NCBI GenBank assembly: GCA_018303855.1
Contig: JAGVXI010000013.1
Coordinates: forward strand, 34,735-98,734
Length of the DNA: 64,000 nucleotides
From: Candidatus Pacearchaeota archaeon
GTDB lineage: Archaea; Nanobdellota; Nanobdellia; Pacearchaeales; GW2011-AR1
Reading direction: 5' to 3'
The notes beneath the pieces are model-generated. The model had not been told where the DNA came from. It was given only the letters and a program-made list of their open reading frames with translations, and did not search any database. Numbering within the stretch: the first letter of the stretch is position 1; each line of letters begins with the position of its first letter. Shown here piece after piece: positions 622 through 58,473 of this stretch. The position numbers were made by a program, and so were the translations under genes.

Positions 622-808
622 ATTAATGTTGGTAGTGGTTTGATTTTAATCTAATTTTTGCGTTCATTATACAATCTGTCAATATCCCTCTTTATACTAA
701 ATTAGTTCCAACTTATTTAACTCTTAAGTGGTAACATAATAGAAAGGTTTATAAATGGGGTTTTGTATGGAAAGTTAAGATAAATTGCTTAAACACAATA
801 AATAAAAA

Positions 809-3422: not shown

Positions 3423-4388
3423 TTACCCCTCAATCAGCTCCTTAACAAGCTGAGCCATTGTTCTCATGAAGTCTTCTGTTTTAACTTGCCACTCGTCAAT
3501 CTCTACGCCTTTTAAATCAGTAACTTCGCCGTGTGCAATTTTTTTGTGCAGATAATGCAAATCCCTATAATCAATAACATATTTCATTTTTAACTTTTTA
3601 TTATCAACAAATGTTTCTTTTAAGTTGATTGGAATGTGCTCAGGCGAAGGCGGTGAGACATTTGCTGCAATTAAAGCTGCGTGAGCAGAATCAACCATCG
3701 CCCAGTATAATCCCTCTACTGCATTTAATTCAGCAACTTTGCTTCTAGAAATATGCAATGGAGCTCTTTGAAGGGCATTATAAACAGCTTCTGGCGTTGA
3801 TTTTATTTTGCCTTTTACCAGTAGATATTTTAGAGGCTCAAAAAATCCTCCAAAATCTATAATAGACTCGCCGTACCTTATGATATTTATAACAACTGGA
3901 TCGCCTTTTAGCAAATCTTCCCACCATGTGCTAAGCTTTATTGTGTTAACATGAATCTCCCTATTATAAGGATTGCTTTTCAGGGTTTTTTCAAGTTCTT
4001 CTCTGTACCATGCTATAAGTTCCTGGTCCCAGTTTATGGAAACATCGTCGATGATAATGACAATATCAATATCAGAGCCTGCAACATTGCTTTGCTTGAT
4101 TGTAGAACCAAAGAGAACCACAGATTTAACCATTTTATCAAATTTTTGGTAAACTTTTGTTGCAAAATCAAGGGCAATTTCTGTTTCTCTTTTTAACTGC
4201 AGTGTTGGAAGTTTTTTTGAATCAGGTTTTGAGTTTTTATTTTTATCTTTTTCAGCTTTCTCTTTTTTGTCAGCAAGCAGTTTTTTTACAACTTTGGCTT
4301 CTTGTTTTTCTTCTTCTTTTTTTAATGGTGTTTTATACTGCTCTTTTTTTTCAGCCTGTTTTTTTGCATCTCTTTTTTTCTTTTTCAT
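3423..4388 (-). CDS. nucleotidyltransferase-domain protein with Lys/Glu-rich N-terminal extension
   Basis: VVLFGSTIKQSNVAGSDIDIVIIID is the Pol-beta superfamily GS...D.D motif. The first ~90 aa are KE-rich and low complexity. Confidence 0.6.
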   Translation of the reverse strand: MKKKKRDAKKQAEKKEQYKTPLKKEEEKQEAKVVKKLLADKKEKAEKDKNKNSKPDSKKLPTLQLKRETEIALDFATKVYQKFDKMVKSVVLFGSTIKQSNVAGSDIDIVIIIDDVSINWDQELIAWYREELEKTLKSNPYNREIHVNTIKLSTWWEDLLKGDPVVINIIRYGESIIDFGGFFEPLKYLLVKGKIKSTPEAVYNALQRAPLHISRSKVAELNAVEGLYWAMVDSAHAALIAANVSPPSPEHIPINLKETFVDNKKLKMKYVIDYRDLHYLHKKIAHGEVTDLKGVEIDEWQVKTEDFMRTMAQLVKELIEG

Positions 4389-6458: not shown

Positions 6459-6784
6459 TTTTTTATTGTGATTAAATGTTATCTGAGTTAATTAATATTT
6501 AACTTTAACAGTTTTAACATGCTGATATAATAATATGCTTCTTATTTTTTTATTATTAGCACTTTTATTGATTATCCCTTTTTTATCCTATATCCAATAA
6601 TTATTTTATGTTTAAATACCTTGTTGATCTTGTTGAAAGATATTTGATTTTATGATTATATTGTAAGATTAAGACTTTTTAATCTATTCTAGTTTAAGAA
6701 ATTCTATTTGTTTATATATTATATTTAACTTTTAAGTAGTTACATAATAGAAAGATTTATAAAATGAGTTGTCCCATATTTTTT

Positions 6785-8410
6785 ATGGTACAAACTATAC
6801 ACCCGGAAGTTGTAGTCAGGGCTTATGATTTAGGTGGTTTTGGCGATATTGCAGGAGCTATGAGAGTTGCGAGCCATTTTCAAAGAACAGGAACAAAAAC
6901 CTTAATTAAAGGAACATCTCATAGTGCTGTAGAAAAACTTGAAATCTTGAGCCCAGATGTAAATTTTAAAGAAAGCCAAGTTGGTTCTGATAATCATGTT
7001 ATAAAAGTAGACATTGCAGGGCATTACAAAGATGGAAGAAATAATGGAAACAATGATGTCCCCCATCATTTTACAGAAGACATGGATAACCCTTCTAATA
7101 GAAGAAAAGAAGTGCCGATTTATTTAAAAAGTGGATTACATTCACACCAACACCCCTCGCAAATCCCATTTTATACTCACATAAACGGACACACGCCTAT
7201 GTTTTACCGTCCATTTAGAGAATGGGATTTACCAAAACCAGGACAAAGAGATGCAAGAAGACAAATTTTAGAAGCTTTAGAAACAAAAAAAAGATTCGCT
7301 CTTTTTAAAAAACCTACTTCTAATCTTCAAAAATTATTAGAAGGTCAAAATAAAATAGGATTTGCCCACATATCCCCTCAAATGCAAGCATGGCCCCCAG
7401 AAAAAATTTTTGAACACCCTTATTTTCATGCTATTTATACTGCACACATATCAAAAGATAGTGATAAATTTACAATTGGTTTATTCTTAAATGGAGAACT
7501 TGAAAAAAGATTAACATCTGTTGCTGAATCAAAATATTGGAATGTTGTTGGAAGAGATGGGCAATCCACAAAATTTAACAGGGATTTGCCAACTTTATTA
7601 TTTTTAGGTTCACAACCACAAACAACAGTTACTGGGTTATTTTTATCTTCAGATATACCCAACCTAGTTACAGGAGACTTATCTTTATCTGATGCCTTAT
7701 ATGGATTAATAGCAATGGATGGACCTGCTTTTTTTTATGAAACTCCAACTTGGAAAATTCCTACCCTTACAGAATTGGGTTCAATACTCATGAAAACAGA
7801 TCCTCATTTAGCTGGAGAATTTATGGTTGGAAGCAATTCTTGTAAGATACTAAAGATAAATCAAAAAAATTCGCAAACTGGAAAAGAGATAGCTAATACC
7901 TTTTTTGAAAGAGTAGTAAATGTTTTCAGCGATAAAAAATATGCTTCTCGATATACAGAAGGTATGAGAACAGCAATCAGAAGAGAAATTCAAAGAAGAT
8001 TTGGTAATGTTCAAGTAGAAAGTAATATGAAAAGAGATTTTTATATTGTACTAGGAGCTCCTTATCTTATACAAGATGCAACTGTACAAGTTGTAGATAC
8101 ATTAAGAGCAAACCCAGAAGCATTAGCAGAAACAGAGAAAGTTAGAAGAATGCTTAAAGATGGTGTGCCAGTAAGTGTCAATGTTCACACCGGTGTTTTA
8201 GAGCCAGAAGTTACACCCTCTTTTAATTTCAAATATGGAGAACTTTCTGATTTATTATCAATTAATCCTTATCTTTATGGTTATAATAAAGATTCTAAAT
8301 CTTTAATAAAGCCAGATTATGAAGGAATAGATTATTTTTTTAACTTTAAGTATGCTCCAAAAAAACTAGAAGATTACTTATATTTTACCTTCTGTAAAAT
8401 CAATTATTAA
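6785..8410 (+). CDS. hypothetical large protein, probably leaderless start at the second Met
   Basis: 548-aa ORF (track start 6764). The TATA box at 6755-6763 sits only about 10 nt from the track ATG, so the ATG at 6785 is more plausible. No recognisable domain. Confidence 0.4.
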   Translation: MVQTIHPEVVVRAYDLGGFGDIAGAMRVASHFQRTGTKTLIKGTSHSAVEKLEILSPDVNFKESQVGSDNHVIKVDIAGHYKDGRNNGNNDVPHHFTEDMDNPSNRRKEVPIYLKSGLHSHQHPSQIPFYTHINGHTPMFYRPFREWDLPKPGQRDARRQILEALETKKRFALFKKPTSNLQKLLEGQNKIGFAHISPQMQAWPPEKIFEHPYFHAIYTAHISKDSDKFTIGLFLNGELEKRLTSVAESKYWNVVGRDGQSTKFNRDLPTLLFLGSQPQTTVTGLFLSSDIPNLVTGDLSLSDALYGLIAMDGPAFFYETPTWKIPTLTELGSILMKTDPHLAGEFMVGSNSCKILKINQKNSQTGKEIANTFFERVVNVFSDKKYASRYTEGMRTAIRREIQRRFGNVQVESNMKRDFYIVLGAPYLIQDATVQVVDTLRANPEALAETEKVRRMLKDGVPVSVNVHTGVLEPEVTPSFNFKYGELSDLLSINPYLYGYNKDSKSLIKPDYEGIDYFFNFKYAPKKLEDYLYFTFCKINY

Positions 8411-8629: not shown

Positions 8630-8932
8630 TTATTTATTTTTAATATCAAAAAGTCCTTGTGTTTTACCACACCTTAAAAGGTGTGGTTTGTTTGGACTTT
8701 TGGATGCTCAAGATACCACCACACACTAAAGTGTGTGGTTTTCTTCAAGTATCTTGACATCAAGAAATCCATGTGTGTTTGGTTGGATTTATCAAGAACA
8801 ATAGTTCTTGAGTGTGCTCAAGATTCTTTGAATCTTGGCATTTAGAGACAGAAATGCTAATATTTCTGTGTAAATAACAACAATACTTAGCCGAGCATAT
8901 CTAATAATCATTAATTATAATTTGTCAAAGAC
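8629..8932 (+). mobile_element. MITE-like modular palindromic repeat, copy 1
   Basis: About 300 bp of non-coding sequence with several perfect palindromes (8666-8687 ACCACACCTTAAAAGGTGTGGT, 8719-8738, CAAGAACAATAGTTCTTG). Both ends and internal modules reappear as the reverse complement at 37700-37946. Confidence 0.55.
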
Positions 8933-8998
8933 TAAATAATCTTTACAATTCATTTACAAACTAAAGTAGATGGATTTTTTGCAGAGAAATTAAAAACT

Positions 8999-9754: not shown

Positions 9755-10090
9755 CTAATTAATTTTTATTCTGCTTACCTCTGTTTTGAGTTTTGGCAAA
9801 TCACTTTCTATTATTTTCCATACTCTGTCCATACTTACACCAAAATAAACATGGCTTAATACATCTCTAAATCCTGCTATATCTTTCCAAGCTATCTTGG
9901 GGTACTTTTCTCTAAATGAATTAGGGATATTTTTAACTGCTTCTCCAATTATCTCCAACTGCCTTATTATTGCACTTTGTCTTAATTTATCCTTAGAAAA
10001 TTTCTCGCTGTTTAACCCCCTTGAAAAATTTTCTATATCATTTATGCTTTCTTTAATGTCTTCTATAAACAAGCCTACATTTCTTTTCAT
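9755..10090 (-). CDS. HEPN/DUF86 (HepT-like) toxin component
   Basis: Small protein ending ...RDVLSHVYFGVSMDRVWKII..., typical of DUF86/HepT. It overlaps the upstream MNT gene by 4 nt. Confidence 0.6.
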   Translation of the reverse strand: MKRNVGLFIEDIKESINDIENFSRGLNSEKFSKDKLRQSAIIRQLEIIGEAVKNIPNSFREKYPKIAWKDIAGFRDVLSHVYFGVSMDRVWKIIESDLPKLKTEVSRIKIN

Positions 10091-10605
10091 ATTATTTTTA
10101 TTTCCTCTTTTAAAATATTTTCCTTTATTAAGGGTTTAATAACAGAATATTCTACTAAATCTACTTTTCTCCCAAGAATGTCCTCTAATTTTAATTTTAA
10201 CCTAATAAAACCAAGTAAACTCATGCCTTTATCATTAATTTCAACAGCTATATCAACATCACTATTCTTCTTTTGCTTGCCTCTTGAATAACTTCCAAAA
10301 ATTCCGGCTTTGGTGACTTTATTTTTCATTAAGATTTTGATTATTTTAGACTTAATTTTTTCTATTTCTTTGTTTGGCTTTGTTTTTTTAGACAATAATT
10401 CTTTATCAGCCATTTTCTCTTTTTTTAATAGTTCTGAATTTGGTAATTCAGTTCCAAGATATAACCTTCTTTTTGAGATTTTATTACCATTTCTTACAGA
10501 GATAACTCTATAATAATACTTTCTTCCATTAATGTTTCTAACTTCTGTAAATGTCATAATCTGCTTATGTCTACAATATTTATAAATCCTTCTGTGTGGA
10601 CACAA
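10087..10605 (-). CDS. minimal nucleotidyltransferase (MntA-like) antitoxin component
   Basis: GIFGSYSRGKQKKNSDVDIAVEI is the GS..D.D NTase motif. The N-terminal ~60 aa may be an extension or a mis-called start. Confidence 0.6.
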   Translation of the reverse strand: MCPHRRIYKYCRHKQIMTFTEVRNINGRKYYYRVISVRNGNKISKRRLYLGTELPNSELLKKEKMADKELLSKKTKPNKEIEKIKSKIIKILMKNKVTKAGIFGSYSRGKQKKNSDVDIAVEINDKGMSLLGFIRLKLKLEDILGRKVDLVEYSVIKPLIKENILKEEIKII

Positions 10606-20160: not shown

Positions 20161-20394
20161 ATGAAGTATAAAGGTGATAGGCATGGAAATTTAATTGAGG
20201 TCTTACCAAAAGGCGTTGAAAAAAGAGTTAGGCTTGGTTGGACTCCGAGTCCAGGGTTATCTCCATTTAAATCTGATGGGGTAGTTTTTGACTATGATAA
20301 AAATGGAATGTTGCTTCCACCATGTCATGAGGACAGAAGCCAAATTCAAGTTCATTACTCGCCTAAGGTCTTTCAAGATAATTTTTTCTTTTAG
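20161..20394 (+). CDS. hypothetical small protein (3-prime end runs into a tandem repeat)
   Basis: ORF only. The stop codon lies inside the 28-bp repeat. Confidence 0.2.
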   Translation: MKYKGDRHGNLIEVLPKGVEKRVRLGWTPSPGLSPFKSDGVVFDYDKNGMLLPPCHEDRSQIQVHYSPKVFQDNFFF

Positions 20395-20469
20395 CTAAAT
20401 TTAAGATAATTTTTTCTTTTAGCTAAATTTAAGATAATTTTTTCTTTTAGCTAAATTTAAGATAATTTT
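20375..20469. repeat. 28-bp perfect tandem repeat, about 3.4 copies (AAGATAATTTTTTCTTTTAGCTAAATTT)
   Basis: Seen directly. It lies upstream of rpiB. Confidence 0.85.
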
Positions 20470-20502
20470 ATATACATTCTACAATTAATAAGTTCATAAA
20501 AA

Positions 20503-20955
20503 ATGGTGCAAACTAAAATTTATACTGCTAGCGACCATGTAGGTTTCAAGTTAAAGGAAAAGCTGAAAAAATATCTTGATAATGAAGGTTATGAAATAAA
20601 AGATTTTGGTTCACATAAATATAACAAGCTAGATGATTATCCTGATTTTGTAATTCCATTAGCAAAAGCTCTTTCTAAAGATAAAACGTTTAAGGGAGTT
20701 ATCTTCGGTAAATCGGGACAAGGAGAAGCAATTACTGCAAATAAAGTTAAAGGCATAAGGGCAGTTGTTTATTATGGTGGAAACCTAAATATAATAAAAC
20801 TTTCACGACAGCATAATGATTCAAATGTTCTTTCTCTTGGAGCTGGTTTTTTATCTTATCAAGAAGCAGTTAAAGCAGTTGATTTGTGGCTAAAAACTCC
20901 TTTTAGCAATGCCCTAAGGCATAAAAGAAGATTGGGGAAGATTGAAGGGAATTAA
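20503..20955 (+). CDS. rpiB: ribose-5-phosphate isomerase B (RpiB/LacAB family)
   Basis: 150 aa, with GSHKYNKLDDYPDF, GVIFGKSGQGEAITANK and SLGAGF matching the family. Confidence 0.75.
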   Translation: MVQTKIYTASDHVGFKLKEKLKKYLDNEGYEIKDFGSHKYNKLDDYPDFVIPLAKALSKDKTFKGVIFGKSGQGEAITANKVKGIRAVVYYGGNLNIIKLSRQHNDSNVLSLGAGFLSYQEAVKAVDLWLKTPFSNALRHKRRLGKIEGN

Positions 20956-21314: not shown

Positions 21315-21384
21315 TTACAAATTTATAAATTTTATACCACAATCATGGAAAGATTTATAAACATGTGGAAGTATATATTTCCAT

Positions 21385-21915
21385 ATGGAAATAAAAATAA
21401 CCATTTTAAAATCTTTTTTCGAAGAACCAAATAGAAAATTTAGCATCAGACAACTTTCTAGAATCTTGAAGATTAATCATACTACTATAAGGCAACATCT
21501 TAACAAACTTGTTAAAGAAGGTTTTTTATCATTAAAAAAAGAAGAGATATATTCTTTTTATCAGTTGGTTTTATCTAAAAAAACCTTAAACTTGAAGTTA
21601 TATTATAACCTAGAAAAAATCAGAATTTCTAATCTCGTAGAATATTTAGAAAAAGAGTATGATCTGCCTACTATTATACTATTTGGGAGTTATGCCTCGG
21701 CAATGGACGACATAACTAGTGACGTAGACATCTGCATAATTTCAAACATAAATAAAGAGTTTGTGGCACAAAAATACGAGAAAACACTAGGTAGAAAAGT
21801 AAGTATTCACAAGTTTACTAAAATTTCCTGGGAAAAAGCAAAAAAAACAAATCCTAACTTAATAAACAATATCTGCAACGGTTTGGTTTTATCTGGGGAA
21901 TTGGAGGCATTATGA
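21385..21915 (+). CDS. HTH plus nucleotidyltransferase-domain protein (MNT-like)
   Basis: N-terminal wHTH (IRQLSRILKINHTTIRQHLNKLVKEGFL) followed by ILFGSYASAMDDITSDVDICII. A BRE/TATA at 21347-21362 supports a leaderless start. Confidence 0.55.
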   Translation: MEIKITILKSFFEEPNRKFSIRQLSRILKINHTTIRQHLNKLVKEGFLSLKKEEIYSFYQLVLSKKTLNLKLYYNLEKIRISNLVEYLEKEYDLPTIILFGSYASAMDDITSDVDICIISNINKEFVAQKYEKTLGRKVSIHKFTKISWEKAKKTNPNLINNICNGLVLSGELEAL

Positions 21916-31756: not shown

Positions 31757-32683
31757 TTAGTGTTTTGGTTTTGTTATTACACAGGTATATTCTACGTCGG
31801 AAGCGAATTCTTTCATTCCATCGTTTTTTAATTTTATAGGATCTTTATAATCTCCATTATCTATAATATAAGAGACATTTAAATTATCTAATATTCCACG
31901 CAACTCTTCTACTGTAAGCATTTGAGCCATTGCTCCTATATAATCTTTAACTAATGATTCACTATTCCATCTTTCATCCCCTATTCTAGAAAGTAATGTT
32001 TTCCAATCAGCATCTCTCTTAAGATCTCTGATGTACAACCTTCCACCATTATTTAAAGTAGAATACATTGTTTTTATAGCTAAGGTTGGATCTTTAAATC
32101 TGTGTAAAGCATTTCTGCATACTATATAATTAACATCTTTTATATCAGGCATAATACTTTGTAAATCATATACACTACCTTCTCTAAATTCTAATCCATT
32201 ACTTTTGAATATTTTTTTAACAACACCTGAATCATTAATCCTATAACTTTCTGGCATTCTTTGTTGAAATGATTTTACTTCCTCTATCTTTTGTTGCATT
32301 CTTCCTTTTAAATTATCATAAGCCAATCTTATCATATCCTTAGATAAATCAATACCCACCAAATTCCCATTTGTTTCCTCAAATAGTGCTAAACTCAGTA
32401 ATCCAGAACCGCAACCTACATCTAATATGGTGCCTACATTAGAAGCAGGATGGTTAACAGAATAACACCTTGTTCTATTCCTGAAATCCTGCGCTATTCT
32501 TTTATAAGTTTTTTGTCTTGCTAGTAATCCAATTTTATTATATTCTTCGGCTAATCTTCCAGTCATAGCCTCTTGCGTAAATAAACACTCTCTACCCTTC
32601 ACGTGTATTCCAAACATCTCATTTACTGCCTTGTCTAAAGACGAACATCTTTCAATTTTGGTTCTTTCTATATTATTTACCAT
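31757..32683 (-). CDS. class I SAM-dependent methyltransferase
   Basis: ILDVGCGSGLLSLAL (motif I) and VGIDLS (motif II). Confidence 0.6.
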   Translation of the reverse strand: MVNNIERTKIERCSSLDKAVNEMFGIHVKGRECLFTQEAMTGRLAEEYNKIGLLARQKTYKRIAQDFRNRTRCYSVNHPASNVGTILDVGCGSGLLSLALFEETNGNLVGIDLSKDMIRLAYDNLKGRMQQKIEEVKSFQQRMPESYRINDSGVVKKIFKSNGLEFREGSVYDLQSIMPDIKDVNYIVCRNALHRFKDPTLAIKTMYSTLNNGGRLYIRDLKRDADWKTLLSRIGDERWNSESLVKDYIGAMAQMLTVEELRGILDNLNVSYIIDNGDYKDPIKLKNDGMKEFASDVEYTCVITKPKH

Positions 32684-32779
32684 AATATAGTAGTAACGTA
32701 TAATCTATTTAAAAGAGTGTAGTAGTGGGGGTTACAACATAATAGAAAGAATTATAAATCTGAAATCCCAACAACTAAT

Positions 32780-33496
32780 ATGAAATATGAATTATTAGAA
32801 AAGGCAGGATTAAGCCCAAATGAAGCTAAGTGCTATTTCTCCTTACTAGGAATTGGATCAGCTTCTGCTAATGAAATATCAAGAATATCTGGCGTTCATA
32901 GGGTTTCTGTTTATGATGCCCTAAGAGGACTACGAGAAAAAGGTTTAATTAGTCAAATTACAAAGGCAAATAAACTATTATTTGAAGCTGGAAATCCAAA
33001 TAAAATTTTGGAGATTATAAAAGAAAAAGAGACTATATTAGAGGAGGCTAAGTTAGTAGTACCAGATTTATTGAACTTATTTAATTCTAAAACGGAAAGA
33101 CAAGATATCCACAGCTTTAAAGGACTTGCGGGAATAAAAACGGTTCTAAATGAAATGCTTAATTCAAAGACCGAAATTTTAGATTTTGGAGCGGAACATA
33201 AGATAAAGGAATTCCTGCCTTATGATTATAAGAGATGGGATAATCAAAGGGTAAAAAATAAAACAAAAATGAGAATTGTTGCCAATATTAATATAAAACC
33301 AACCAAATTAAGACTGACGGATATTAAATACATCCCATCTCAATTTAATTCGTCTGTTTCAACCTATATCTTTGATGGAAAAGTTGCTTTAATTATGTGG
33401 GTAGAAAATCCTTTAGCCGTCATTATTGAACATAAAGCAGTTTATCAATCATATAAAAATTATTTTGAGTATCTTTGGAAAACAACAAAGAAGTAA
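32780..33496 (+). CDS. trmB: TrmB family transcriptional regulator
   Basis: N-terminal LLEKAGLSPNEAKCYFSLLGIGSASANEISRISGVHRVSVYDALRGLREKGLI is the TrmB wHTH, followed by a C-terminal effector domain. Confidence 0.7.
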   Translation: MKYELLEKAGLSPNEAKCYFSLLGIGSASANEISRISGVHRVSVYDALRGLREKGLISQITKANKLLFEAGNPNKILEIIKEKETILEEAKLVVPDLLNLFNSKTERQDIHSFKGLAGIKTVLNEMLNSKTEILDFGAEHKIKEFLPYDYKRWDNQRVKNKTKMRIVANINIKPTKLRLTDIKYIPSQFNSSVSTYIFDGKVALIMWVENPLAVIIEHKAVYQSYKNYFEYLWKTTKK

Positions 33497-33512: not shown

Positions 33513-34667
33513 TCACTTCCCCTTAAACTTAACTTTTTCTAAATGATTTAAAATGTCCTTTAGGGCAACTTTTTTTACTGTTACAACTTCGTCAGCTCCT
33601 CCAGAATAAATTAAAATATCTTTTTCATTCTCATCCATTATTGCACCTGTTGTAAAAATAACATTGCTTACAAAACCTTCTTTTTCATATTTTTTTGTTG
33701 GGATTATAATTGGATGAGGAGATTTTGCTATTAGTTTTGATGGATTTTTCAAATCAAACAAAGCAGCACCAATTGAATAAATTGAATAAACATTATCTTC
33801 TTCAAACATTTTACTTAAAAAATTTGGCAGAATGTTTAATTGGCTATGGTGCTTTTTGTCTGTAACCCCATGATAAAGCAAAAGCCATCCGTCTTTTGTT
33901 TTTATTGGAGGTGCACCAGCTCCAACTCTTGAATAGTCCCATTTTCCTCTTTCAGAAAGTTTTATGGGCTTGGAATTCCCCCAATATTTCAGGTCTTTTG
34001 AAAAAGAAATCCATATATGTGGGGGTGAAAACTGAAAGCTTCCTTCTGGCCTGTTAAAAGCAACATATTCATTATTAATTTTCTCTGGAAAAATCACAAC
34101 ATCTTTATTTTGTTCTCTAAAAATCAAACCTTTTCTTTTCCAGTTTAAAGCATCTTTTGATACAGCACAGCTTGTTGTTATGTTGCCATCAATTGACAAG
34201 CTAACATAAGCCATTATATACTCTTTTCCAAGTTTTGTGATTCTTGGGTCTTCAACCCCCAATTCGCCGTCATTGAATAGCCCCTCAAAAGTTGGGTGTT
34301 TATCTATTGATTTAACTTTAAATCCTGATTTATCAAGTATAACTTTTCTTAAATGAGATATAAATGTCAGCCTTTTTGTTCCTTCTTTGAAAACCAAAGC
34401 AACATCCCTGTCCAATCCCATGTCTTTTTTTGGAAATTTATCTATTTTAACCATGCATTTATTTTTTCCAGAACATCTCGGTGCATAATAATATCTTTTG
34501 TCCTCTATTTTTTTTAGCTTTTCAGCAACCCTAACATAAAGAGCAATATCGCCATTTGGCATTCTTGTAGCTCCTGGATTAAAAGTGCCAATAACTTCAA
34601 ATTTACTTGATGAGGATTTTACATCTTCAGGAGTTACAAGTACAGCCTCTTTTTTTATTGGAATCAT
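33513..34667 (-). CDS. GH130 family glycosidase/phosphorylase (DUF377, PH1107-related)
   Basis: FNPGATRMPNGDIALYVRV, DPRITKLGKEYIMAY and GAGAPPIKTKDGWLLLYHGV. Confidence 0.7.
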   Translation of the reverse strand: MIPIKKEAVLVTPEDVKSSSSKFEVIGTFNPGATRMPNGDIALYVRVAEKLKKIEDKRYYYAPRCSGKNKCMVKIDKFPKKDMGLDRDVALVFKEGTKRLTFISHLRKVILDKSGFKVKSIDKHPTFEGLFNDGELGVEDPRITKLGKEYIMAYVSLSIDGNITTSCAVSKDALNWKRKGLIFREQNKDVVIFPEKINNEYVAFNRPEGSFQFSPPHIWISFSKDLKYWGNSKPIKLSERGKWDYSRVGAGAPPIKTKDGWLLLYHGVTDKKHHSQLNILPNFLSKMFEEDNVYSIYSIGAALFDLKNPSKLIAKSPHPIIIPTKKYEKEGFVSNVIFTTGAIMDENEKDILIYSGGADEVVTVKKVALKDILNHLEKVKFKGK

Positions 34668-34735
34668 GATTTATATTGGATAAAAGGATATAAAAAGGTT
34701 TCATAGGGGAAGGAGTGAGAGGGGAGGTTTAAACA

Positions 34736-37411: not shown

Positions 37412-37660
37412 ATGTACTCTGTAGAATTATCACGCACAGCAGAAAAGCAATTTTTCAAACTTTCGGAGAGCATTAGGGAAAGAGTAATTAATGTTTTGGA
37501 AAGAATCAGAGCAAGGCCATATCATTTTGTAAAAAGAAAAGAAGGAACGCCTTATTTTATAGCCAGAATTGGAGATTATAGGGCAATTTTAAGTATTAAC
37601 AACGAACAGCTTAAGATTTATGTTATAGAAGTCGGGCATAGAAAGAATATCTATGGTTAA
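37412..37660 (+). CDS. RelE/ParE family toxin
   Basis: MYSVELSRTAEKQFFKL...GDYRAILSINNEQLKIYVIEVGHRKNIY is the RelE fold signature. Confidence 0.7.
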   Translation: MYSVELSRTAEKQFFKLSESIRERVINVLERIRARPYHFVKRKEGTPYFIARIGDYRAILSINNEQLKIYVIEVGHRKNIYG

Positions 37661-37699
37661 TTTGGTTAATGAATTGTGAAAATTATTTATTCTTTGGAG

Positions 37700-37946
37700 A
37701 ATTATAATTAATTATCATTAGCTATGCTCGGTTAAGTATTATTGCCATTTATGTCAAGATTGCCAATGCAGAAAACCATGCTCTTTAGAGCATGGATGAA
37801 TGCAATCTTGAGCATCCAAAAGTCCAAAACAAACCACACATGTCAAGAATTTTCAATTCTTGAGCACTCTCAGGAATTCACATTCCTGAAGCTTTAGTGT
37901 GTGGTAAAACGCAAGGACTTTTTGATGTTAAAGATCAATAAATAAG
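37700..37946 (-). mobile_element. MITE-like modular palindromic repeat, copy 2 (inverted relative to copy 1)
   Basis: The reverse complement matches the 8629-8932 termini (CTTATTTATT...AAAAAGTCCTTG.GTTTTACCACAC and ...TACTTA.CCGAGCAT..CTAATGATAATTAATTATAATT) and shares the internal TTGGACTTTTGGATGCTCAAGAT module. Confidence 0.55.
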
Positions 37947-37948
37947 TT

Positions 37949-37964
37949 ATGGGCTTTAGCCCAT
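37949..37964. terminator. perfect 16-bp palindrome ATGGGCTTTAGCCCAT between convergent genes
   Basis: Seen directly. It is flanked by A/T runs and sits between RelE (+) and the glycosidase (-). Confidence 0.4.
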
Positions 37965-38015
37965 AGAGAAATTCAGGTTGTCACAAAATATAATGCCCTG
38001 CACTAAAAAATCCCC

Positions 38016-39158
38016 TCACACCAGACACTTCTTAGCCTTCACGCTTTCATAAGCAGCAATGTACATGCCAGCATTCCAGCCCTGGTTTCCTTCTTTGCTT
38101 CCACTTGCAGAAACTCCTGGTTTGCCTGTTTTTCCATTTAACCATTCTGAAAAAAACGGCTTTTGCATATTTGCTTTTGCAAGTAACTCTAATTGTTTTT
38201 CAGCTTCTTTAAACTTCTTTAGTTTAACAAGCGCAAGAACATAAAATCCTCCAATGTAAGTCCATATTCCTGCATTTAGATAATGATAGGGTGTGCGTGC
38301 ATCGCAATCATTAAAATAATCTTCCCAATACTTACTTCCTCTTTTTATTGCAGGATAAATTGCCTTAACAGGAAATGGCTTGTCCACCCTTTTATTTTTA
38401 ATGTAATTAATTATTTTTTCTGCTTGCTCCTTATTTGCTAAGTCATAAATTATTGCAAGTAAATTTCCTAAGCTGTCAAACCACTCGCCAAATTCCTTAT
38501 ATTTTCCATGATTTTTCCATCTCCAAGGCAGATAAAACTCGCCTTGCCACAACTTGTCATCTTTATCTTCATTTACAATTATCTTAAGTTTTTCTGCTAG
38601 AGATTTCTTACCGATTAAATTCAGAATCTTATAGTATAATGCCTGTGTATTAATTGTATGCCCGTATTTGTGAGGAAAAGCATCTTGCCAGTCTGTTGTT
38701 GGCAGTTGTTCTAAAGTTATGTCTTCTCCAAAATCCCTGTATTCAAGCCAGGTAATTGCTTTTTTTATTGCGTTTTTATGCTTCTTGAAAAGCGAGGCTT
38801 CCTTATATCTTTGCTTATAAATATAACTACCAATAATAAACCACAAGCTTGAGTCAACTGATTTAAAGTCAACATGATGCTTTCTTCCTTTAATAAATCT
38901 GTCAACTGCATTTGGAATTTGCCCTTTCTTGCTTTGGTTTTTCGCTAAAGTAATTAATGAGTTTTTAAAAGTCTCTTTAAGTTTTTTATCTTTAAGCAAA
39001 CTTGCTCCTAAAGAAATTATCATGCTGTCTCTTCCAAAAACCATGTCATAGCCAGGGTATGCTGCATAAAACCCGTTTTTAGTTGAGCATTTTTTTAAAA
39101 CCTCAATTGCTTTTTTGTATGCTATTTCTGTTATGCCCTCTTTTTTTATTGGAATCAT
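38016..39158 (-). CDS. six-hairpin (alpha/alpha)6 glycosidase-like protein (GDE_C / GH63-like)
   Basis: Size and W/Y/D-rich blocks (DSSLWFIIGSY, WLEYRDFGEDITLEQLPTTDWQD, GNQGWNAGMY) resemble amylo-alpha-1,6-glucosidase-type domains. Inference. Confidence 0.5.
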   Translation of the reverse strand: MIPIKKEGITEIAYKKAIEVLKKCSTKNGFYAAYPGYDMVFGRDSMIISLGASLLKDKKLKETFKNSLITLAKNQSKKGQIPNAVDRFIKGRKHHVDFKSVDSSLWFIIGSYIYKQRYKEASLFKKHKNAIKKAITWLEYRDFGEDITLEQLPTTDWQDAFPHKYGHTINTQALYYKILNLIGKKSLAEKLKIIVNEDKDDKLWQGEFYLPWRWKNHGKYKEFGEWFDSLGNLLAIIYDLANKEQAEKIINYIKNKRVDKPFPVKAIYPAIKRGSKYWEDYFNDCDARTPYHYLNAGIWTYIGGFYVLALVKLKKFKEAEKQLELLAKANMQKPFFSEWLNGKTGKPGVSASGSKEGNQGWNAGMYIAAYESVKAKKCLV

Positions 39159-39227
39159 TATTTATTATAGAAAGGAGAATATAAAAATGTTTCATAATTT
39201 TGCTATTCTTGCCTCTTCATGAAAAAA

Positions 39228-42440: not shown

Positions 42441-42806
42441 TTACCTATTCAACAAAGCCTCCTCAATTATCTTAACCCCAAGATATCTATTGTTTTTGAA
42501 TTTACTTGCAACATAGATTACAATTGGCCTTTCTATTTCTCCAAGACTTTTTTCAAACAATTTGTCTATTTTTCCATTTTCTTTAATTGCTTTCCATAAG
42601 TTAATTGGTTCTTGCCCATTTTCACTTTTAATTATTGAGGCAATTTTCGGGATTATTACCTCAAGAGCTTTTTGTATTTTTTCTTTTAGATGCTCCTCGT
42701 CATACTTACTGCCCTTGTATTCCTTTACAAATTCAATAGATAGATTCTGAATTCCTTGCATTTTCTTACTTTGAACTGTCAACAATTTCTTTGATGTCCA
42801 TTTCAA
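42441..42806 (-). CDS. hypothetical protein
   Basis: 121-aa ORF between thioredoxin and DUF302. No motif. Confidence 0.3.
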   Translation of the reverse strand: MKWTSKKLLTVQSKKMQGIQNLSIEFVKEYKGSKYDEEHLKEKIQKALEVIIPKIASIIKSENGQEPINLWKAIKENGKIDKLFEKSLGEIERPIVIYVASKFKNNRYLGVKIIEEALLNR

Positions 42807-43155
42807 CCCACTCAGCTTCTTCTTTGCTTACCTCTGGAAAGAATTGGGAGATTATTGTAGGTTTCATTCCAACAATTTTTACTCTCCCGCCTTCTTCTAA
42901 AACGTTTATTTTACATGGCATACAAAGAGATATCAACCTGTTTTTATTAAGAAAATTATTTGCATGTTTTCCAGAGCAAATCTCAATTATCTTTAATGGT
43001 TTCTGCTCAAAACCTTTTGCTGCTAATCTTTCTTTAACATCATAAATCTGAAACAAACTCCAGCCTTTTTGTTCAACAGCTTTTAAAATAGACACAACAG
43101 CTTCATCAAAATTTTTGTCTGTTTCAACAACATATGCAAAATCTTCTGTTTTCAT
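42766..43155 (-). CDS. DUF302-domain protein (cassette A)
   Basis: 129 aa, about 85% identical to 54019-54408. KGWSLFQIYD...LKIIEICSGKHAN fits DUF302. Confidence 0.65.
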   Translation of the reverse strand: MKTEDFAYVVETDKNFDEAVVSILKAVEQKGWSLFQIYDVKERLAAKGFEQKPLKIIEICSGKHANNFLNKNRLISLCMPCKINVLEEGGRVKIVGMKPTIISQFFPEVSKEEAEWVEMDIKEIVDSSK

Positions 43156-43367
43156 CTTTTTCTTATGTCAGAATTTTGTATTTGCTTAATTAGCCATACT
43201 ATAAATAAGATTAAAGCAATAAAAACAAGGGTCATAAATAACCATCCAAATAACCACATTCCTCCAAAGCCCACCATCCCCATGCTTCCAAAACCAAATC
43301 TCCAAAAACCTAAAAATAATAAAAGAACAGATACTATGATTACAATTATTAAATTATCGTCTTTCAT
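43152..43367 (-). CDS. small Gly/Met/Trp-rich membrane protein (cassette A)
   Basis: 71 aa with GFGSMGMVGFGGMWLFGWLFM and C-terminal VWLIKQI. Paralog at 53382-53594. ATGA overlaps with neighbours. Confidence 0.45.
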   Translation of the reverse strand: MKDDNLIIVIIVSVLLLFLGFWRFGFGSMGMVGFGGMWLFGWLFMTLVFIALILFIVWLIKQIQNSDIRKR

Positions 43368-43636
43368 TTTCCTTTTTGATTAGCCATCAAAGATTTAACA
43401 AGCCAGACAATAACTGCCACTATTAAAACAAGTAATAAGGTGTTTACTAATACAATTGTAACATTAAAAGAATTTTTATAAGAGTCATAATAACCTGGAT
43501 AATTATTCATCATTCCTCCTCCAGAACCCCCCATATTCATCATCATTTGCATCATGCCACTCGATTCACCACAATAAATTCCTTTAGCCATGTTTATATG
43601 AACCTGTCTTAAACTTTCACTTCCTTCTCCACCCAT
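43364..43636 (-). CDS. Met/Gly-rich tail-anchored small protein (cassette A)
   Basis: MGGEGSESLRQVHINMAKGIYCGESSGMMQMMMNMGGSGGGMM... then a C-terminal TM. The first 32 codons are 100% nt-identical to the paralog at 54405-54737. Start chosen at the internal ATG preceded by GGAG. Confidence 0.5.
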   Translation of the reverse strand: MGGEGSESLRQVHINMAKGIYCGESSGMMQMMMNMGGSGGGMMNNYPGYYDSYKNSFNVTIVLVNTLLLVLIVAVIVWLVKSLMANQKGK

Positions 43637-43823
43637 CTTCTCCAGGATGCATTTGTTCCATGTAATAATCCCCAATAGCCTCGAGTTGTTCATCTGTGAG
43701 TTTATCACAACTAATTCCCGAATCTACAAGCTTTTTTGTTTCAGTAAGGTTATGCTCATGGGCAAGCACAAATGCACTAAATAGCATAATCAATAACACT
43801 ATAGGCAGAGCTATTTTTTTCAT
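43617..43823 (-). CDS. small secreted protein with signal peptide (cassette A)
   Basis: MKKIALPIVLLIMLFSAFVLAHEH... then SCDKLTDEQLEAIGDYYMEQMH. AGGAG sits 7 nt upstream. The 3-prime end overlaps the Met-rich gene by 20 nt in the +1 frame. Confidence 0.5.
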   Translation of the reverse strand: MKKIALPIVLLIMLFSAFVLAHEHNLTETKKLVDSGISCDKLTDEQLEAIGDYYMEQMHPGEDGWRRK

Positions 43824-44398
43824 TTTTCTCCTGTGTCTTTTGTTAAGACAATCCCATAATGATACGGTTTTAAATCATATTTCATTGGATGATTAAACCC
43901 GGAATTTACAGCTAATTCAATGCTTTGTTCTGGCTTAAGCCTAAGTTCCATTGGAGGTCCTCTGGGAGTTGTAGGGTCATAATTCCAATGAATAATCCCA
44001 ACCCTCCTTTCTGGTTTTAAAATTCGATAAGCTTCTTCAAGTAGTTTATTTGGCCTGTCTTTAATAAGAATATTAAAAAGAATAACATAATCAACACTTT
44101 CGTCTTCAAGTCCAGTGCCATCTGACATAAAATCACGAAGAATTGCTTTAACATTCTTTAATTTGTGCTCCCTTGCTTTTCTTTGTGTCTCTTTAATCAT
44201 CTTTGGCTCTATATCAAGAGCATAAACTTTTCCCTTTACAATTTTTGCAGCAGGTATGGTAAATATGCCGTAACCACAACCAAAATCAACCAAATTCTCA
44301 ATTTTCTTGTCAATTCCCATTACCTTAAAGATTCTTTCCACATCAAAGAATTTTCTCCACATTTTTTCTTGTGGCATTCCACTTTCCCTAACTTTCAT
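43820..44398 (-). CDS. small class I SAM-dependent methyltransferase (cassette A)
   Basis: VDFGCGYGIFTIPAA (motif I), ALDIEPKM and VGIIHWNY. 192 aa. 72% identical to 55705-56268. Confidence 0.65.
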   Translation of the reverse strand: MKVRESGMPQEKMWRKFFDVERIFKVMGIDKKIENLVDFGCGYGIFTIPAAKIVKGKVYALDIEPKMIKETQRKAREHKLKNVKAILRDFMSDGTGLEDESVDYVILFNILIKDRPNKLLEEAYRILKPERRVGIIHWNYDPTTPRGPPMELRLKPEQSIELAVNSGFNHPMKYDLKPYHYGIVLTKDTGEK

Positions 44399-44723
44399 TT
44401 TTGCTCCTTATTTTTTTGATTAACTTCTCATTTTTTTTAAGCTGTTTAAATAAAATGTCCCTCATAATGTCGCAGGCTTTAATCATCTCTGGATAAGCTA
44501 AGCTATAGTAAATATTCTTGCCGTTTCTTTTTGTTAAAACAAGATTTTTCTGCCTTAAGATAGTAAGGTGCTGTGAGATAGTTGACTGGGAAATTTTAGT
44601 AAGATTCACTAACTCGCCTACATTTCTTTTCTTATTTCTTAATAGATTTATGATCTCCAATCTTACAGGATTTGAAAGCGTTTTACATATTTCAGCATGA
44701 ATTTCATATAATTCTTTGTTCAT
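44388..44723 (-). CDS. ArsR/SmtB family transcriptional regulator (cassette A)
   Basis: LSNPVRLEIINLL...VGELVNLTKISQSTISQHLTILRQKNLV is the ArsR HTH. About 90% identical to 56265-56600. Confidence 0.7.
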   Translation of the reverse strand: MNKELYEIHAEICKTLSNPVRLEIINLLRNKKRNVGELVNLTKISQSTISQHLTILRQKNLVLTKRNGKNIYYSLAYPEMIKACDIMRDILFKQLKKNEKLIKKIRSKNES

Positions 44724-53962: not shown

Positions 53963-54018
53963 ATGAAAACTAAGTACATACAGCTATTTAAGGTTTTCTA
54001 TCCTCATTTTTTAATGTC

Positions 54019-54408
54019 TTATCTTGCTTTATCCACAATTTCTTTAATATCTTTTTCTACTTCTTCAGTTTTTTTTCGACTAACCTCAGGAAAGAATTGG
54101 GAAATTATTGTAGGTTTCATTCCAGCAATCTTTATCTTTCCATTTTCTTCAAGGACATTTATTTTACACGGCATACAAAGAGATATTAACCTGTTTTTAT
54201 TAAGAAAAATATTTGCGTGTTTTCCAGAGCAAATCTCAACTATCTTTAATGGTTTCTGCTTAAATCCCTTTGCAGCCAATCGTTCTTGGATATCATAAAT
54301 CTGAAACAAACTCCAACCTTTTTGTTCAACTGCTTTCAGCACTGAAATAACAGCCTCATCAAAACTTTTATTGGTTTCAACAATATATGCAAAATCTTCT
54401 GTTTTCAT
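54019..54408 (-). CDS. DUF302-domain protein (cassette B)
   Basis: Paralog of 42766-43155. Confidence 0.65.
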   Translation of the reverse strand: MKTEDFAYIVETNKSFDEAVISVLKAVEQKGWSLFQIYDIQERLAAKGFKQKPLKIVEICSGKHANIFLNKNRLISLCMPCKINVLEENGKIKIAGMKPTIISQFFPEVSRKKTEEVEKDIKEIVDKAR

Positions 54409-54737
54409 TTTTTTCTACGCCCTATACCTCTTCCAGAACTCTTTATCTGTTTAATCAACCAAACTATCAGTAGAACTAAAATAATAATCACAAGAATAAT
54501 AAATAACCAACTAAACACATTGTAACCACTATAGTAGCTTCCATTTATTCCTTGCATCATGCTACCCTGTATATTTTGTCCTCCCATCATACCTCCAGAA
54601 CCGCCCATTATTCCACCAGAACCCATCATGTTGCCCCCCATCATCATTTGCATCATGCCACTCGATTCACCACAATAAATTCCTTTAGCCATGTTTATAT
54701 GAACCTGTCTTAAACTTTCACTTCCTTCTCCACCCAT
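54405..54737 (-). CDS. Met/Gly-rich tail-anchored small protein (cassette B)
   Basis: MGGEGSESLRQVHINMAKGIYCGESSGMMQMMMGGNMMGSGGIMGGSGGMMGG... then C-terminal TM LLIVWLIKQI. Confidence 0.5.
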   Translation of the reverse strand: MGGEGSESLRQVHINMAKGIYCGESSGMMQMMMGGNMMGSGGIMGGSGGMMGGQNIQGSMMQGINGSYYSGYNVFSWLFIILVIIILVLLIVWLIKQIKSSGRGIGRRKK

Positions 54738-54918
54738 GCATTTGTTCCATGTAATAATCCCCAATAGCCTCAAACTGTGCATCAGTAAAATTGTTGCAGC
54801 TAATATTAGAATTAATAAGCTGTTTTGTTTCAGCAAAACTCTGTTCATGAGCTGATACTAAGAATGCAATTAGTAGTAATATTCCAAAGGCGAATATTGT
54901 TAGTGTTATTTTTTTCAT
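54718..54918 (-). CDS. small secreted protein with signal peptide (cassette B)
   Basis: MKKITLTIFAFGILLLIAFLVSAHEQS...SCNNFTDAQFEAIGDYYMEQMHGWRRK. GGAGGT sits 7 nt upstream of the internal ATG chosen as start. Confidence 0.5.
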   Translation of the reverse strand: MKKITLTIFAFGILLLIAFLVSAHEQSFAETKQLINSNISCNNFTDAQFEAIGDYYMEQMHGWRRK

Positions 54919-54997
54919 TTTGATACCTCCATTACATTTATTATTACTATATCTGGAATAAGTATCTTGCCACTTAAACCGTTTTAAACCATTATTA

Positions 54998-55468
54998 TCA
55001 TCTTTGCAAATATACATTGTAAGTTTTTCCTGTCCTTTTTCTTTGAATTAAATTTCTCTTATCTAAATTAGTTAAAATTGTTGAAATCTTGGCTTTACTC
55101 CAGTCTAATCTAAACCTTAATGAATCTTGGGTAATTTCCCCAGCTTTTTTTATCTCATCTAAAATATCTTTTTCATCTTTTGACAAAGCTTTTCTTAAGA
55201 TACTATATTCTTTTTCTTTATTTTCATGCTTAAATAAATAAAAGGAAACAAAAAAAACCACAAGAAGTGCAATAATTAATGATATCAAGGTTATAACCGT
55301 AGATTTATTATTAGAACTCCTTATCTGATCCATCATATCTGCCATCGAAGTTGGCTCCTTAACAAAAATTTGGCTTAATATCAAAAGCATAATAAGATAT
55401 AATATAACTCCCACTAACAGAATAAACAATACCTTTGACACATTGTTTATATTTTGTAAATTATTCAT
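54998..55468 (-). CDS. membrane-anchored winged-HTH protein
   Basis: N-terminal TM plus C-terminal ...ISTILTNLDKRNLIQRKRTGKTYNVYL. Similar architecture to 63027-63506. Confidence 0.45.
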   Translation of the reverse strand: MNNLQNINNVSKVLFILLVGVILYLIMLLILSQIFVKEPTSMADMMDQIRSSNNKSTVITLISLIIALLVVFFVSFYLFKHENKEKEYSILRKALSKDEKDILDEIKKAGEITQDSLRFRLDWSKAKISTILTNLDKRNLIQRKRTGKTYNVYLQR

Positions 55469-55691
55469 TTTTCCCCCAGGTTATTTTATTCCACGCGCGT
55501 TCGTGATAATAATAGATAATGATCTTTAAAGTTATTTCAAAAAAACCTACACCAAAGGAGATAATAAAGCTTTTTGTAAAAATAAATACTAAAATTATCG
55601 TTGTAAGTGTTGCAATTATTCTCCAACTAATGCTTTTAACAATACTTCTCTTATGTGTGTCTATTATTTTTTTGTGTTTATCTTTTTTCAT
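55461..55691 (-). CDS. DUF2061 family membrane protein
   Basis: KRSIVKSISWRIIATLTTIILVFIFT...IIYYYHERAWNKITWG. Confidence 0.5.
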   Translation of the reverse strand: MKKDKHKKIIDTHKRSIVKSISWRIIATLTTIILVFIFTKSFIISFGVGFFEITLKIIIYYYHERAWNKITWGKNE

Positions 55692-55704
55692 TTTTATCTT
55701 TAGC

Positions 55705-56268
55705 TTACTTTCTTAAAACAATCCCATAATGATAAGGTTTAAGATTATACATTTTGGGATTGTTAAATCCAAATAAAACAGCTAATTCAATGCTTTGTTT
55801 TGGCTTAAGTCTAAGTTCCATTGGAGGTCCTCTGGGGGTTGTTGTATCATAATTCCAATGAATAATCCCAACTCTCCCTTCTGGTTTTAAAATCCGATAA
55901 GCTTCTTCAAGTAGTCTGTTTGGTTTATCTTTAGTAAGAATATTAAACAGCAGGACATAATCTACACTTTTATCACCAAGTCCGGAACCTTTGGACATAA
56001 AATCACGAAGCATAGTTTTTATATTATTCAATTTATATTCTCTTGCGCCTTTTTGTGTTTCTTCAATCATCTTTGGTTCTATATCAATAGCATAAACCTC
56101 TCCTTTCACTATCTTCGCAGCAGGAACAGTAAAGGTCCCATAACCGCATCCAAAATCTGCTACATCTTTAACCTCTTGATTTAGCCCCAAAGTTCTTAAT
56201 ATTCTGTCAGGTACGAAAAAATTTTCCCACATTTTTTCTTCTGGCATGCCACTTTCTTTAATTTTCAT
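55705..56268 (-). CDS. small class I SAM-dependent methyltransferase (cassette B)
   Basis: ADFGCGYGTFTVPAA and AIDIEPKM. Paralog of 43820-44398. Confidence 0.65.
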   Translation of the reverse strand: MKIKESGMPEEKMWENFFVPDRILRTLGLNQEVKDVADFGCGYGTFTVPAAKIVKGEVYAIDIEPKMIEETQKGAREYKLNNIKTMLRDFMSKGSGLGDKSVDYVLLFNILTKDKPNRLLEEAYRILKPEGRVGIIHWNYDTTTPRGPPMELRLKPKQSIELAVLFGFNNPKMYNLKPYHYGIVLRK

Positions 56269-56600
56269 TTTCCCCTCCTGATTTTTTGGACTAACTTTTC
56301 ATTTTTCTTAAGCTGTTTAAATAAGATATTTCTCATAATATCACAAGCTTTGATCATTTCAGGATAAGCCAGGCTATAGTAAATATTTTTCCCTTTTCTT
56401 TTTGTCAAAACAAGGTTCTTTTGCCTTAAAATAGTAAGATGCTGGGATATAGTTGACTGGGATATTTTAGTAAGATTCACTAACTCGCCGACACTTCTTT
56501 TTTTGTTTCTTAATAGATTTATAACCTCTAATCTTACAGGATTTGATAGTGTCTTGCATATTTCAGAGTGGATTTTATACACTTTTTTGTTCATAATCAT
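56265..56600 (-). CDS. ArsR/SmtB family transcriptional regulator (cassette B)
   Basis: Paralog of 44388-44723. Confidence 0.7.
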   Translation of the reverse strand: MIMNKKVYKIHSEICKTLSNPVRLEVINLLRNKKRSVGELVNLTKISQSTISQHLTILRQKNLVLTKRKGKNIYYSLAYPEMIKACDIMRNILFKQLKKNEKLVQKIRRGK

Positions 56601-58203: not shown

Positions 58204-58473
58204 TTTATTCTACAATTTAATCTCCCTTCATCCCTGTTCCTTTTCGCTTCATAGCTGTATAATAATATCTGGATACCAATGTTTTTAAATTATTCATATT
58301 CATCTTTATGCCACAAAGTTATGTAACAATCTAAATTTCTCTATGGGCTAAAACCCACAGCTTCTTTATTGATTTTTAATACGGATTAATAGCCAAGGTA
58401 AATAATTATAATACTGGTGGTAGCTAACCGTATTATCAATAACATCATACCACTATTACAATTCATCCTTCTT

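Follow-up and report, generated by a model that had tools for sequence, protein, structure and literature searches.

TrmB, TrmBL1 and the TrmB of Halobacterium are dimeric winged-helix regulators that bind palindromes beside or across the BRE/TATA elements or the start site of their target promoters (PMC4158304). The characterised TrmB operators are TACT-N3-AGTA and TACT-N7-8-GAGTA, and the operator of TrmBL1 (Tgr), named TGM, is TATCAC-N5-GTGATA; in Thermococcales and Halobacterium (TrmBL1, Tgr and Halobacterium TrmB), transcription is activated from sites upstream of the BRE/TATA and repressed from sites that overlie the core or lie downstream of it (PMC4158304). In the work reported here we analysed a 64-kb stretch of DNA from a Candidatus Pacearchaeota archaeon (64,000 nucleotides, hereafter the window; GC ~32%, L10e encoded). 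We know of no characterised TrmB in the DPANN lineage, and no published DPANN or Pacearchaeota promoter or TrmB motif of the type described below was found in the literature searched.

Like the operators of these systems, the elements found in the window are palindromes beside the BRE/TATA. The dyad type of window sites 1 and 2, which we term class R, contains TACT/AGTA tetranucleotides, arranged as TACT-N4-AGTA, a weak likeness of 4 nt, and the regulators of the known systems can control their own gene, as is proposed for this one. Here the half-sites extend over ~10 nt and are separated by N4 or N6. Most targets are orphans and not genes of sugar transport or glycolysis, and the candidate regulators have no sugar-binding subdomain.

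Among the individual proteins, TrmBL2 of the Thermococcales (TK0471 / PF0496), a chromatin-like TrmB paralogue, is the best full-length structural match of TrmB-1, the TrmB-family protein encoded in the window. Both have a truncated C-terminal domain from which the sugar-binding residues are absent (264 aa for TrmBL2, 238 aa for TrmB-1), and each is the most conserved TrmB paralogue of its own clade, although sequence identity between the two is only ~20%. TrmBL2 shows little sequence specificity and is bound within genes as well as between them, whereas TrmB-1 has a precise dyad at its own promoter, the conservation of which points to sequence-specific binding, unlike that of TrmBL2. As regards position, the arrangement also resembles the activator sites of Ptr2, TFB-RF1 and the GvpE UAS, which adjoin the BRE on its upstream side with constant spacing. 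The sites of Ptr2, TFB-RF1 and GvpE compensate for weak core promoters, whereas the BRE/TATA elements described here are near-consensus.

The repeated 22-mer and the core promoter

An initial annotation of this DNA had proposed that one extended promoter element precedes three operons, including that of the TrmB-family gene. The repetition is borne out by a pattern scan of the window, in which ACATAATAGAAAGRWTTATAAA is an exact 22-nt match at 734-755, 6742-6763 and 32737-32758, always on the + strand, against 0.04 copies expected from 100 dinucleotide shuffles; no fourth match was found in the window, even allowing 3 mismatches. Within the window, the extended element is found in only 3 of the ~70 gene upstream regions, which sets it apart from a sequence common to most promoters, the outcome that had been named as a refutation. 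The three sites comprise the following features.

713-736, + strand: class R dyad of site 1, TTATTTAACT-CTTA-AGTGGTAACA
741-746, + strand: BRE of site 1, AGAAAG, from comparison with the generic core
748-755, + strand: TATA box of site 1, TTTATAAA; inferred start at ~777, leader of ~32 nt to ATG 809
6721-6744, + strand: class R dyad of site 2, ATATTTAACT-TTTA-AGTAGTTACA
6749-6754, + strand: BRE of site 2, AGAAAG
6756-6763, + strand: TATA box of site 2, TTTATAAA
32718-32739, + strand: dyad of the trmB-1 class at site 3, TGTAGTAG-TGGGGG-TTACAACA, between two divergent core promoters
32744-32749, + strand: BRE of site 3, AGAAAG
32751-32758, + strand: TATA box of site 3, ATTATAAA

The single consensus that had been drawn through the three sites stands for the 22-mer, which is exact at each of them, but it cannot be extended: the overlap of site 3 with sites 1 and 2 is limited to the promoter-proximal 22 nt, and a 3-nt indel is needed further upstream. 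Sites 1 and 2 have a longer block in common (714-762 and 6722-6770, 49 nt, 86% identity). Their sequence is GT(A/T)ACATAATAG, and that of site 3 is GTTACAACATAATAG. In order, the 22-mer runs through the outer end of a dyad (ACA), a linker of 4 nt, AGAAAG as BRE and TTTATAAA as TATA box. The "extra" identity ACATAAT corresponds to this outer end plus the linker, since the class R palindrome runs into that ACA. The 22 bases common to sites 1-3 are the same architecture, from dyad end to TATA box, and not one operator; sites 1 and 2 both belong to class R, but the trmB promoter has a different dyad, so that the common operator proposed for all three would hold for the first two.

At each of the three sites a single base separates AGAAAG from the TATA box. 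The initial reading of AAAG plus TATA as an archaeal BRE/TATA is sound, as AAAGnTTTAWAWA is found upstream of many unrelated genes, both in related genomes and in the window, and AAAR-N-TTTAWAWA is the generic BRE/TATA of this lineage. In the window such generic promoters occur for example at 10087-10557(-), at 19109(-) and at 21385, the last of which is detailed here.

21348-21361, + strand: GAAAGATTTATAAA, a generic BRE/TATA without upstream dyad (HTH-nucleotidyltransferase gene, 21385)

The short motif formerly reported before this nucleotidyltransferase gene is thus present, but without the upstream part; it is a generic BRE/TATA and falls outside the regulon. Related DNA contains 89 AAAR-N-TTTAWAWA cores, and the 47 non-seed ones are mostly without the upstream element. 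Ordinary promoters keep AAAGnTTTAWAWA without the palindrome, and the palindrome is therefore not part of the generic promoter. The view that the upstream extension exceeds basal needs is supported, in that it is dyad-symmetric, conserved across species and not found in the generic promoter.

The distance from the first T of the TATA box to the ATG is 29 nt at both 6785 and 32780, and lies between 28 and 32 nt in 23 of the 43 scorable downstream ORFs of other species (36-37 nt in 6 more). In archaeal core promoters an A/T-rich TATA octamer, preceded by a purine-rich BRE, is centred ~26 nt before the start site. This spacing makes leaderless transcripts plausible, and leaderless mRNAs from 6785 and 32780, as had been suggested for both genes, are plausible with start sites placed by inference. 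At site 1, 61 nt separate the start of the TATA box from ATG 809, the same distance as in a related locus (L006).

The window holds several other repeats. A non-coding repeat of ~350 nt is present at 8630-8980 (+), 37642-37988 (-) and, partially, 58319-58379, with copies 78-88% identical; it has stops in all frames, several short hairpins and no Rfam match. Indeed, Rfam models gave no match at gathering score anywhere in the window, and a tRNA scan of the window was empty. A multi-gene cluster is duplicated at 42764-44703 and 54017-56574 (81-86% identity), including a 99-nt tract that is 100% identical (43538-43636 and 54639-54737), perhaps as a result of gene conversion. At 20344-20483, directly upstream of ORF 20503-20955, the 28-nt unit TTTAAGATAATTTTTTCTTTTAGCTAAA is repeated four times in tandem, and these units could be iterated binding sites.

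The putative class R operator and its spread

The species-representative genome collection was scanned once with ACATAATAGAAAGNNTTATAAA, which yielded 51 loci. Forty-four of them carry archaeal labels (~41 assemblies), mostly Pacearchaeota, Woesearchaeota and Nanoarchaeota, with a few labelled only "archaeon" or "Methanosarcinales"; the other 7 are labelled bacterial and have unrelated contexts, except for one (L009) that looks archaeal. As 20 of the 22 bases were fixed by the pattern used, the cross-species conservation of this part is not independent evidence. From the unforced flanks of 46 sites in other species, the class R consensus was obtained as TGTTAyTACT-N4-AGTAGTAACA, a palindrome of ~24 bp (base by base, t-G-T-w-A-y-w-A-C-T-wwww-A-G-T-a-g-T-w-A-C-A; the core is also written ..ACT-N4-AGTrGTwACA). 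The dyad scores on both strands. Its axis lies between -10 and -9, with symmetric pairs from -21 to +2, and the information content over the 46 sites is at least 0.7 bits at -16, -13, -12, -7, -6, -3 and -2. The outer left half is degenerate at both window sites, while at site 1 nothing is lost from the inner ACT-N4-AGT or from the right half. The sequence downstream of the 22-mer is not conserved between species. The composite module is clade-wide, across dozens of uncultivated DPANN species, and is not peculiar to the source genome.

Variants of class R have a linker shorter by 1-2 bases, or carry ACAAAATAG. As the linker between dyad and BRE varies by 1-2 nt, a gapless PWM scan under-counted class R, and a regular expression with a flexible linker worked better; a loose regular expression for the ACT-N4-ART dyad returned mostly noise. 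In ~327 kb of related DNA that had not been selected for the motif, the flexible-linker search found class R at three positions (L067:4589, L081:2544 and L143:15217), and it also recovered class R at the promoter of an orthologue of the site 2 gene (L144). The density is estimated at ~1 promoter per 100 kb, with 2 in the window, which fits a small regulon. At one locus (L040, 7395-7445), two back-to-back class R promoters, each with a separate BRE/TATA, have one common dyad, which is a putative bidirectional operator.

These data bear on the possibility that the block is nothing but an extended core promoter, strong and constitutive, which only the basal factors TBP and TFB, the latter perhaps in the form of a paralogue, would recognise. 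Such a promoter would account for the fixed spacing to the BRE/TATA, for the near-perfect core elements and for the "TAG" before AAAG, which is common among generic promoters as well. Moreover, four loci contain the exact 22-mer without the class R dyad (L026, L027, L029 and L048), so the basal machinery could favour part of the block. TFB contacts the BRE, and the known extent of its contacts falls well short of 34 bp upstream of the TATA box. The class R symmetry, however, reaches 34 bp upstream of the TATA box, well past the BRE, and the length of the linker varies by 1-2 nt. In addition, most equally good BRE/TATA promoters have no dyad, and a single dyad can serve two divergent promoters, both at L040 and between trmB-1 and the neighbouring methyltransferase gene. 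We thus regard a purely basal role as improbable.

Two of the four loci without the dyad are promoters of Fic genes (L027, 3880-3950, and L048, - strand, 3690-3740), where the exact 22-mer is flanked by short repeats of its own in place of the class R dyad: ttacccct...aggggtaag and gtagacattacgtct...gtagacgt, respectively. At another locus (L045, 2288-2300), a run of 12 G follows directly on the class R TATA box; it may have arisen in assembly or be a tract subject to phase variation.

The trmB-1 promoter and the TrmB paralogues

Site 3 lies in the intergenic region between trmB-1 and a divergent gene, with the following features in addition to those given above.

32780-33496, + strand: trmB-1, encoding a 238-aa TrmB-family regulator, with its ATG 29 nt after the start of the TATA box
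31757-32683, - strand: divergent gene for a SAM-dependent methyltransferase, which has the trmB-1 operator in common
32706-32713, - strand: TATA box of the divergent methyltransferase gene, TTTAAATA; distance 4 nt to the dyad (left end) and 30 nt to ATG 32683
32690-32697, + strand: additional isolated half-site GTAGTAAC, downstream of the divergent TATA box and ahead of the methyltransferase ATG

TrmB-1 matches PF01978 over residues 6-73 (56.6 bits against a cut-off of 25.6). No match to PF11495, the C-terminal sugar-binding effector domain present in TrmB and TrmBL1, was found, and all NCBIfam equivalogs scored far under their cut-offs (27 bits against 530 for the TrmBL2 equivalog). Its AlphaFold model, of moderate confidence (pLDDT 65), combines a winged helix with a long helix (73-103) and a C-terminal domain that is PLD-like, and the best fold matches in the PDB are full-length TrmBL2, then Pfu TrmB. 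TrmB-1 is a TrmB-family member of TrmBL2-like architecture, probably without sugar sensing. It is encoded on contigs from Rifle aquifer metagenomes. More than 120 clusters at 70-82% identity, nearly all of equal length, were found, and this conservation is well above that of the other two target proteins examined. Two residues of the recognition helix, Y45 and D46, are invariant in 38 TrmB-1 orthologues and align with Y50/D51 of Pfu TrmB (3QPH), which are recognition-helix residues of that protein (PMC4158304).

Orthologues of trmB-1 and their flanks were taken from a metagenome scan. In 28 of the 29 orthologue promoters, the dyad TGTAGTAA-N6-TTACAACA is present with invariant spacing, and in the lone exception the dyad promoter sits ~750 nt further upstream. 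The promoters consist of TGTAGTA(A)-N6-TTACAACA, a ~3-nt linker, AGAAAG, TTTATAAA and a leaderless ATG, and most of the orthologues also have the divergent dyad-TATA arrangement. Through ~700 kb of related DNA, the trmB-1 dyad matches the trmB-1 promoters, on both strands where the palindrome is perfect, and one further locus (L063), where it lies ~90 nt upstream of another TrmB paralogue; two other matches (L019 and L086) look like chance. The site 3 dyad is, as far as can be judged from its sequence, a private operator of TrmB-1 and the divergent neighbour gene. A single half-site, GTTACTA(C), is often found near the start of the divergent gene (also in L068, L070, L071 and L077), which suggests a second contact point near the methyltransferase start.

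Two genes on the - strand, 33513-34667, a GH130 gene adjoining trmB, and 38016-39158, have common 5' ends and upstream sequences that are 85% identical (34646-34705 and 39137-39196) and contain ATGAAACnTTTTTATAT. This stretch is a second common promoter and possibly an operator.

Class R and the trmB-1 dyad are related in several respects: both end in ...ACA 3-4 nt before AGAAAG, both contain the 8-mer GTAGTAAC, and the TAnTA core is equally far from the dyad centre in both, as is expected from paralogous dimeric winged-helix proteins. They differ in the central base (Y in class R, G in the trmB-1 class), in the neighbouring base and in the spacer (N4 against N6), and the common 8-mer is oppositely oriented to the dyad centre. 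Given these differences, the TrmB of the window may not serve sites 1 and 2, the regulator of which may be a different TrmB paralogue encoded outside the window.

A candidate for this role is a paralogue of 256-261 aa, termed TrmB-2, which is encoded behind the exact 22-mer with class R flanks in three species. It is the first gene after the motif in one (L052) and the second in two (L011 and L032), and its sequences are 41-47% identical between species. Its relationship to TrmB-1 is only distant, and the one BLASTP comparison between the two that aligned gives 31% identity over 132 residues. One orthologous group is thus met three times among ~94 first-or-second gene slots, where a rough estimate gives 0.1 expected, the enrichment of TrmB genes downstream of the motif being counted on four cases only. 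These three occurrences, far above chance, make TrmB-2 the best candidate factor for class R; no TrmB-2 is encoded in the 64-kb window. TrmB-1 is an alternative candidate, as its half-site 8-mer is present in class R, and a cascade from TrmB-1 to TrmB-2 is possible. Yet another TrmB paralogue, of a third kind and 246 aa long, is found in L143 (13960-16915), where it is followed by the class R promoter (15217) of a MutS-like gene.

A more distant TrmB group (32-37% identity; L098, L101, L103 and L104) has its own dyad, GTTGTTAT-N5-ATAACAAC, which abuts its own TATA box. Three groups of TrmB paralogues thus have dyads of their own at their own promoters, the pattern expected of autoregulated paralogous dimers. 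This pattern has to be weighed against the possibility that the dyads are operators of a regulator outside the TrmB family, of the Lrp/AsnC, ArsR or RHH type, with the TrmB genes as ordinary members of its regulon. Genes for HTH_AsnC, ArsR and RHH proteins are indeed common in the same loci, and the likeness of the half-sites to known TrmB sites spans only 4 nt in AT-rich DNA (tACT-N4-AGTa in class R, reversed to AGTA..TACw in the trmB-1 class). The dyads in the promoters of the three groups are nevertheless the usual signature of autoregulation, and the extreme conservation of TrmB-1 matches that of its dyad, so that we consider a regulator of another family rather unlikely. The link to TrmB and the autoregulation put forward in the initial annotation gain comparative support from the trmB-1 promoters and from the position of TrmB-2 behind class R, but sites 1 and 2 may belong to another paralogue.

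Class R genes and the proposed regulation

The class R genes of the window are listed first.

809-1438, + strand: site 1 gene; its 209-aa product is an orphan, matched by neither Pfam nor NCBIfam
6785-8410, + strand: site 2 gene, encoding a 541-aa protein with a predicted GT-B glycosyltransferase fold

The site 1 gene is one of two ORFs, 209 nt apart, in the region 809-2127. A word-index homology search with its 209-aa product returned the query alone, and a full HMMER search against 1.8 billion representatives found four distant relatives; the protein is weakly similar to one encoded behind the motif in another locus (L024). The site 2 gene had been described as a 548-aa unknown. The N-termini of its orthologues place the true start at ATG 6785, which gives 541 aa; the mechanical ORF has its first ATG at 6764, at the site 2 TATA box. 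Its homologues share 33-58% identity and, where named, come only from Woesearchaeota or Nanoarchaeota. The structural model is confident (pLDDT 82, pTM 0.83) and predicts the GT-B fold of glycosyltransferases, with the EarP rhamnosyltransferases as nearest match. A class R variant is kept at two of the three GT-B orthologues examined (L142, 53% identity; L144, 41%), where the TATA-ATG spacing is again 29 nt, and this association of gene and motif has therefore outlived deep divergence. The third orthologue (L143) is without the motif, and a class R promoter lies 2.6 kb from it.

In other species, ~33 of the 43 proteins encoded downstream of the 22-mer have no Pfam domain. Recurrent families behind the motif are one of four members (L022, L041, L050 and L051), two Fic proteins, two small LysM proteins and the TrmB family. 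Searched against PHROGs and PADLOC, these 43 proteins gave matches only to Fic and a helicase. The targets of class R are mostly lineage-specific orphans, together with the GT-B glycosyltransferase-like gene, Fic genes and a TrmB paralogue.

A promoter placed before so many non-homologous genes, mostly orphans, and with 49 nt common to sites 1 and 2, might have spread by copying and not have been kept by regulation; it could be the end of a MITE, a site for the attachment of cassettes, a "mobile promoter" or another mobile or recombination-related repeat. The conserved block is short (~45 nt), however, and is single and always oriented towards the gene, with constant spacing to the ATG; neither a second end, paired terminal repeats or a target-site duplication nor a nearby transposase or recombinase was found, and the flanks are unrelated on both sides. 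Moreover, the block is conserved in front of GT-B orthologues that have diverged to 41-53% identity, and we hold spread by copying to be very improbable. A viral or mobile origin was also considered and rejected, as the 5 matches of a viral_contigs scan have unrelated flanks and were taken as chance.

We favour, with reasonable but not high confidence, the reading that the modules are TrmB-family operators beside the BRE which control a small, clade-wide regulon of mostly orphan genes. At each promoter, the near-consensus BRE/TATA core would set initiation ~29 nt downstream, on or beside the ATG, with the dyad operator of ~22-24 bp placed four bases upstream of the BRE. Dimers of TrmB-family proteins would bind the dyads and steer the recruitment of TFB/TBP at the adjoining BRE. 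TrmB-1 would act on its own promoter, in autoregulation, and class R would be acted on by the TrmB-2 paralogue or by TrmB-1.

As to the sign of this control, we lean slightly towards repression over activation. The cores are near-consensus, and the trmB-1 dyad overlaps the BRE position of the divergent promoter, which are the grounds for this leaning; the activation seen from upstream sites in TrmBL1, Tgr and Halobacterium TrmB counts against it.

A bolder interpretation, which we put forward as a long shot, is that class R could be a master switch conserved in Pacearchaeota, Woesearchaeota and Nanoarchaeota alike. A TrmBL2-like regulator, or a cascade from TrmB-1 to TrmB-2, would hold strong leaderless promoters off, and a set of fast-evolving orphan genes specific to their lineages, perhaps for host interaction or surface modification (as the EarP-like glycosyltransferase may suggest), would be freed together, for example on host contact. 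If this were true, these uncultivated symbionts would gain their first defined regulon, with the motif as a genome-wide marker of an "accessory programme".

To our knowledge, almost nothing is known of gene regulation in Pacearchaeota and Woesearchaeota, which are uncultivated and have very few annotated regulators. Under the favoured reading of TrmB-family operators, the promoters described here would show cleanly how paralogous TrmB-like regulators can each have a separate dyad variant while its position in the promoter stays identical. Furthermore, the motif may serve as a sequence tag for a small co-regulated set of otherwise unannotatable orphan genes in hundreds of metagenome-assembled genomes. 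A conserved cis-element together with a candidate regulator family would thus provide a culture-free handle on regulation in these organisms, testable with recombinant protein and synthetic DNA.
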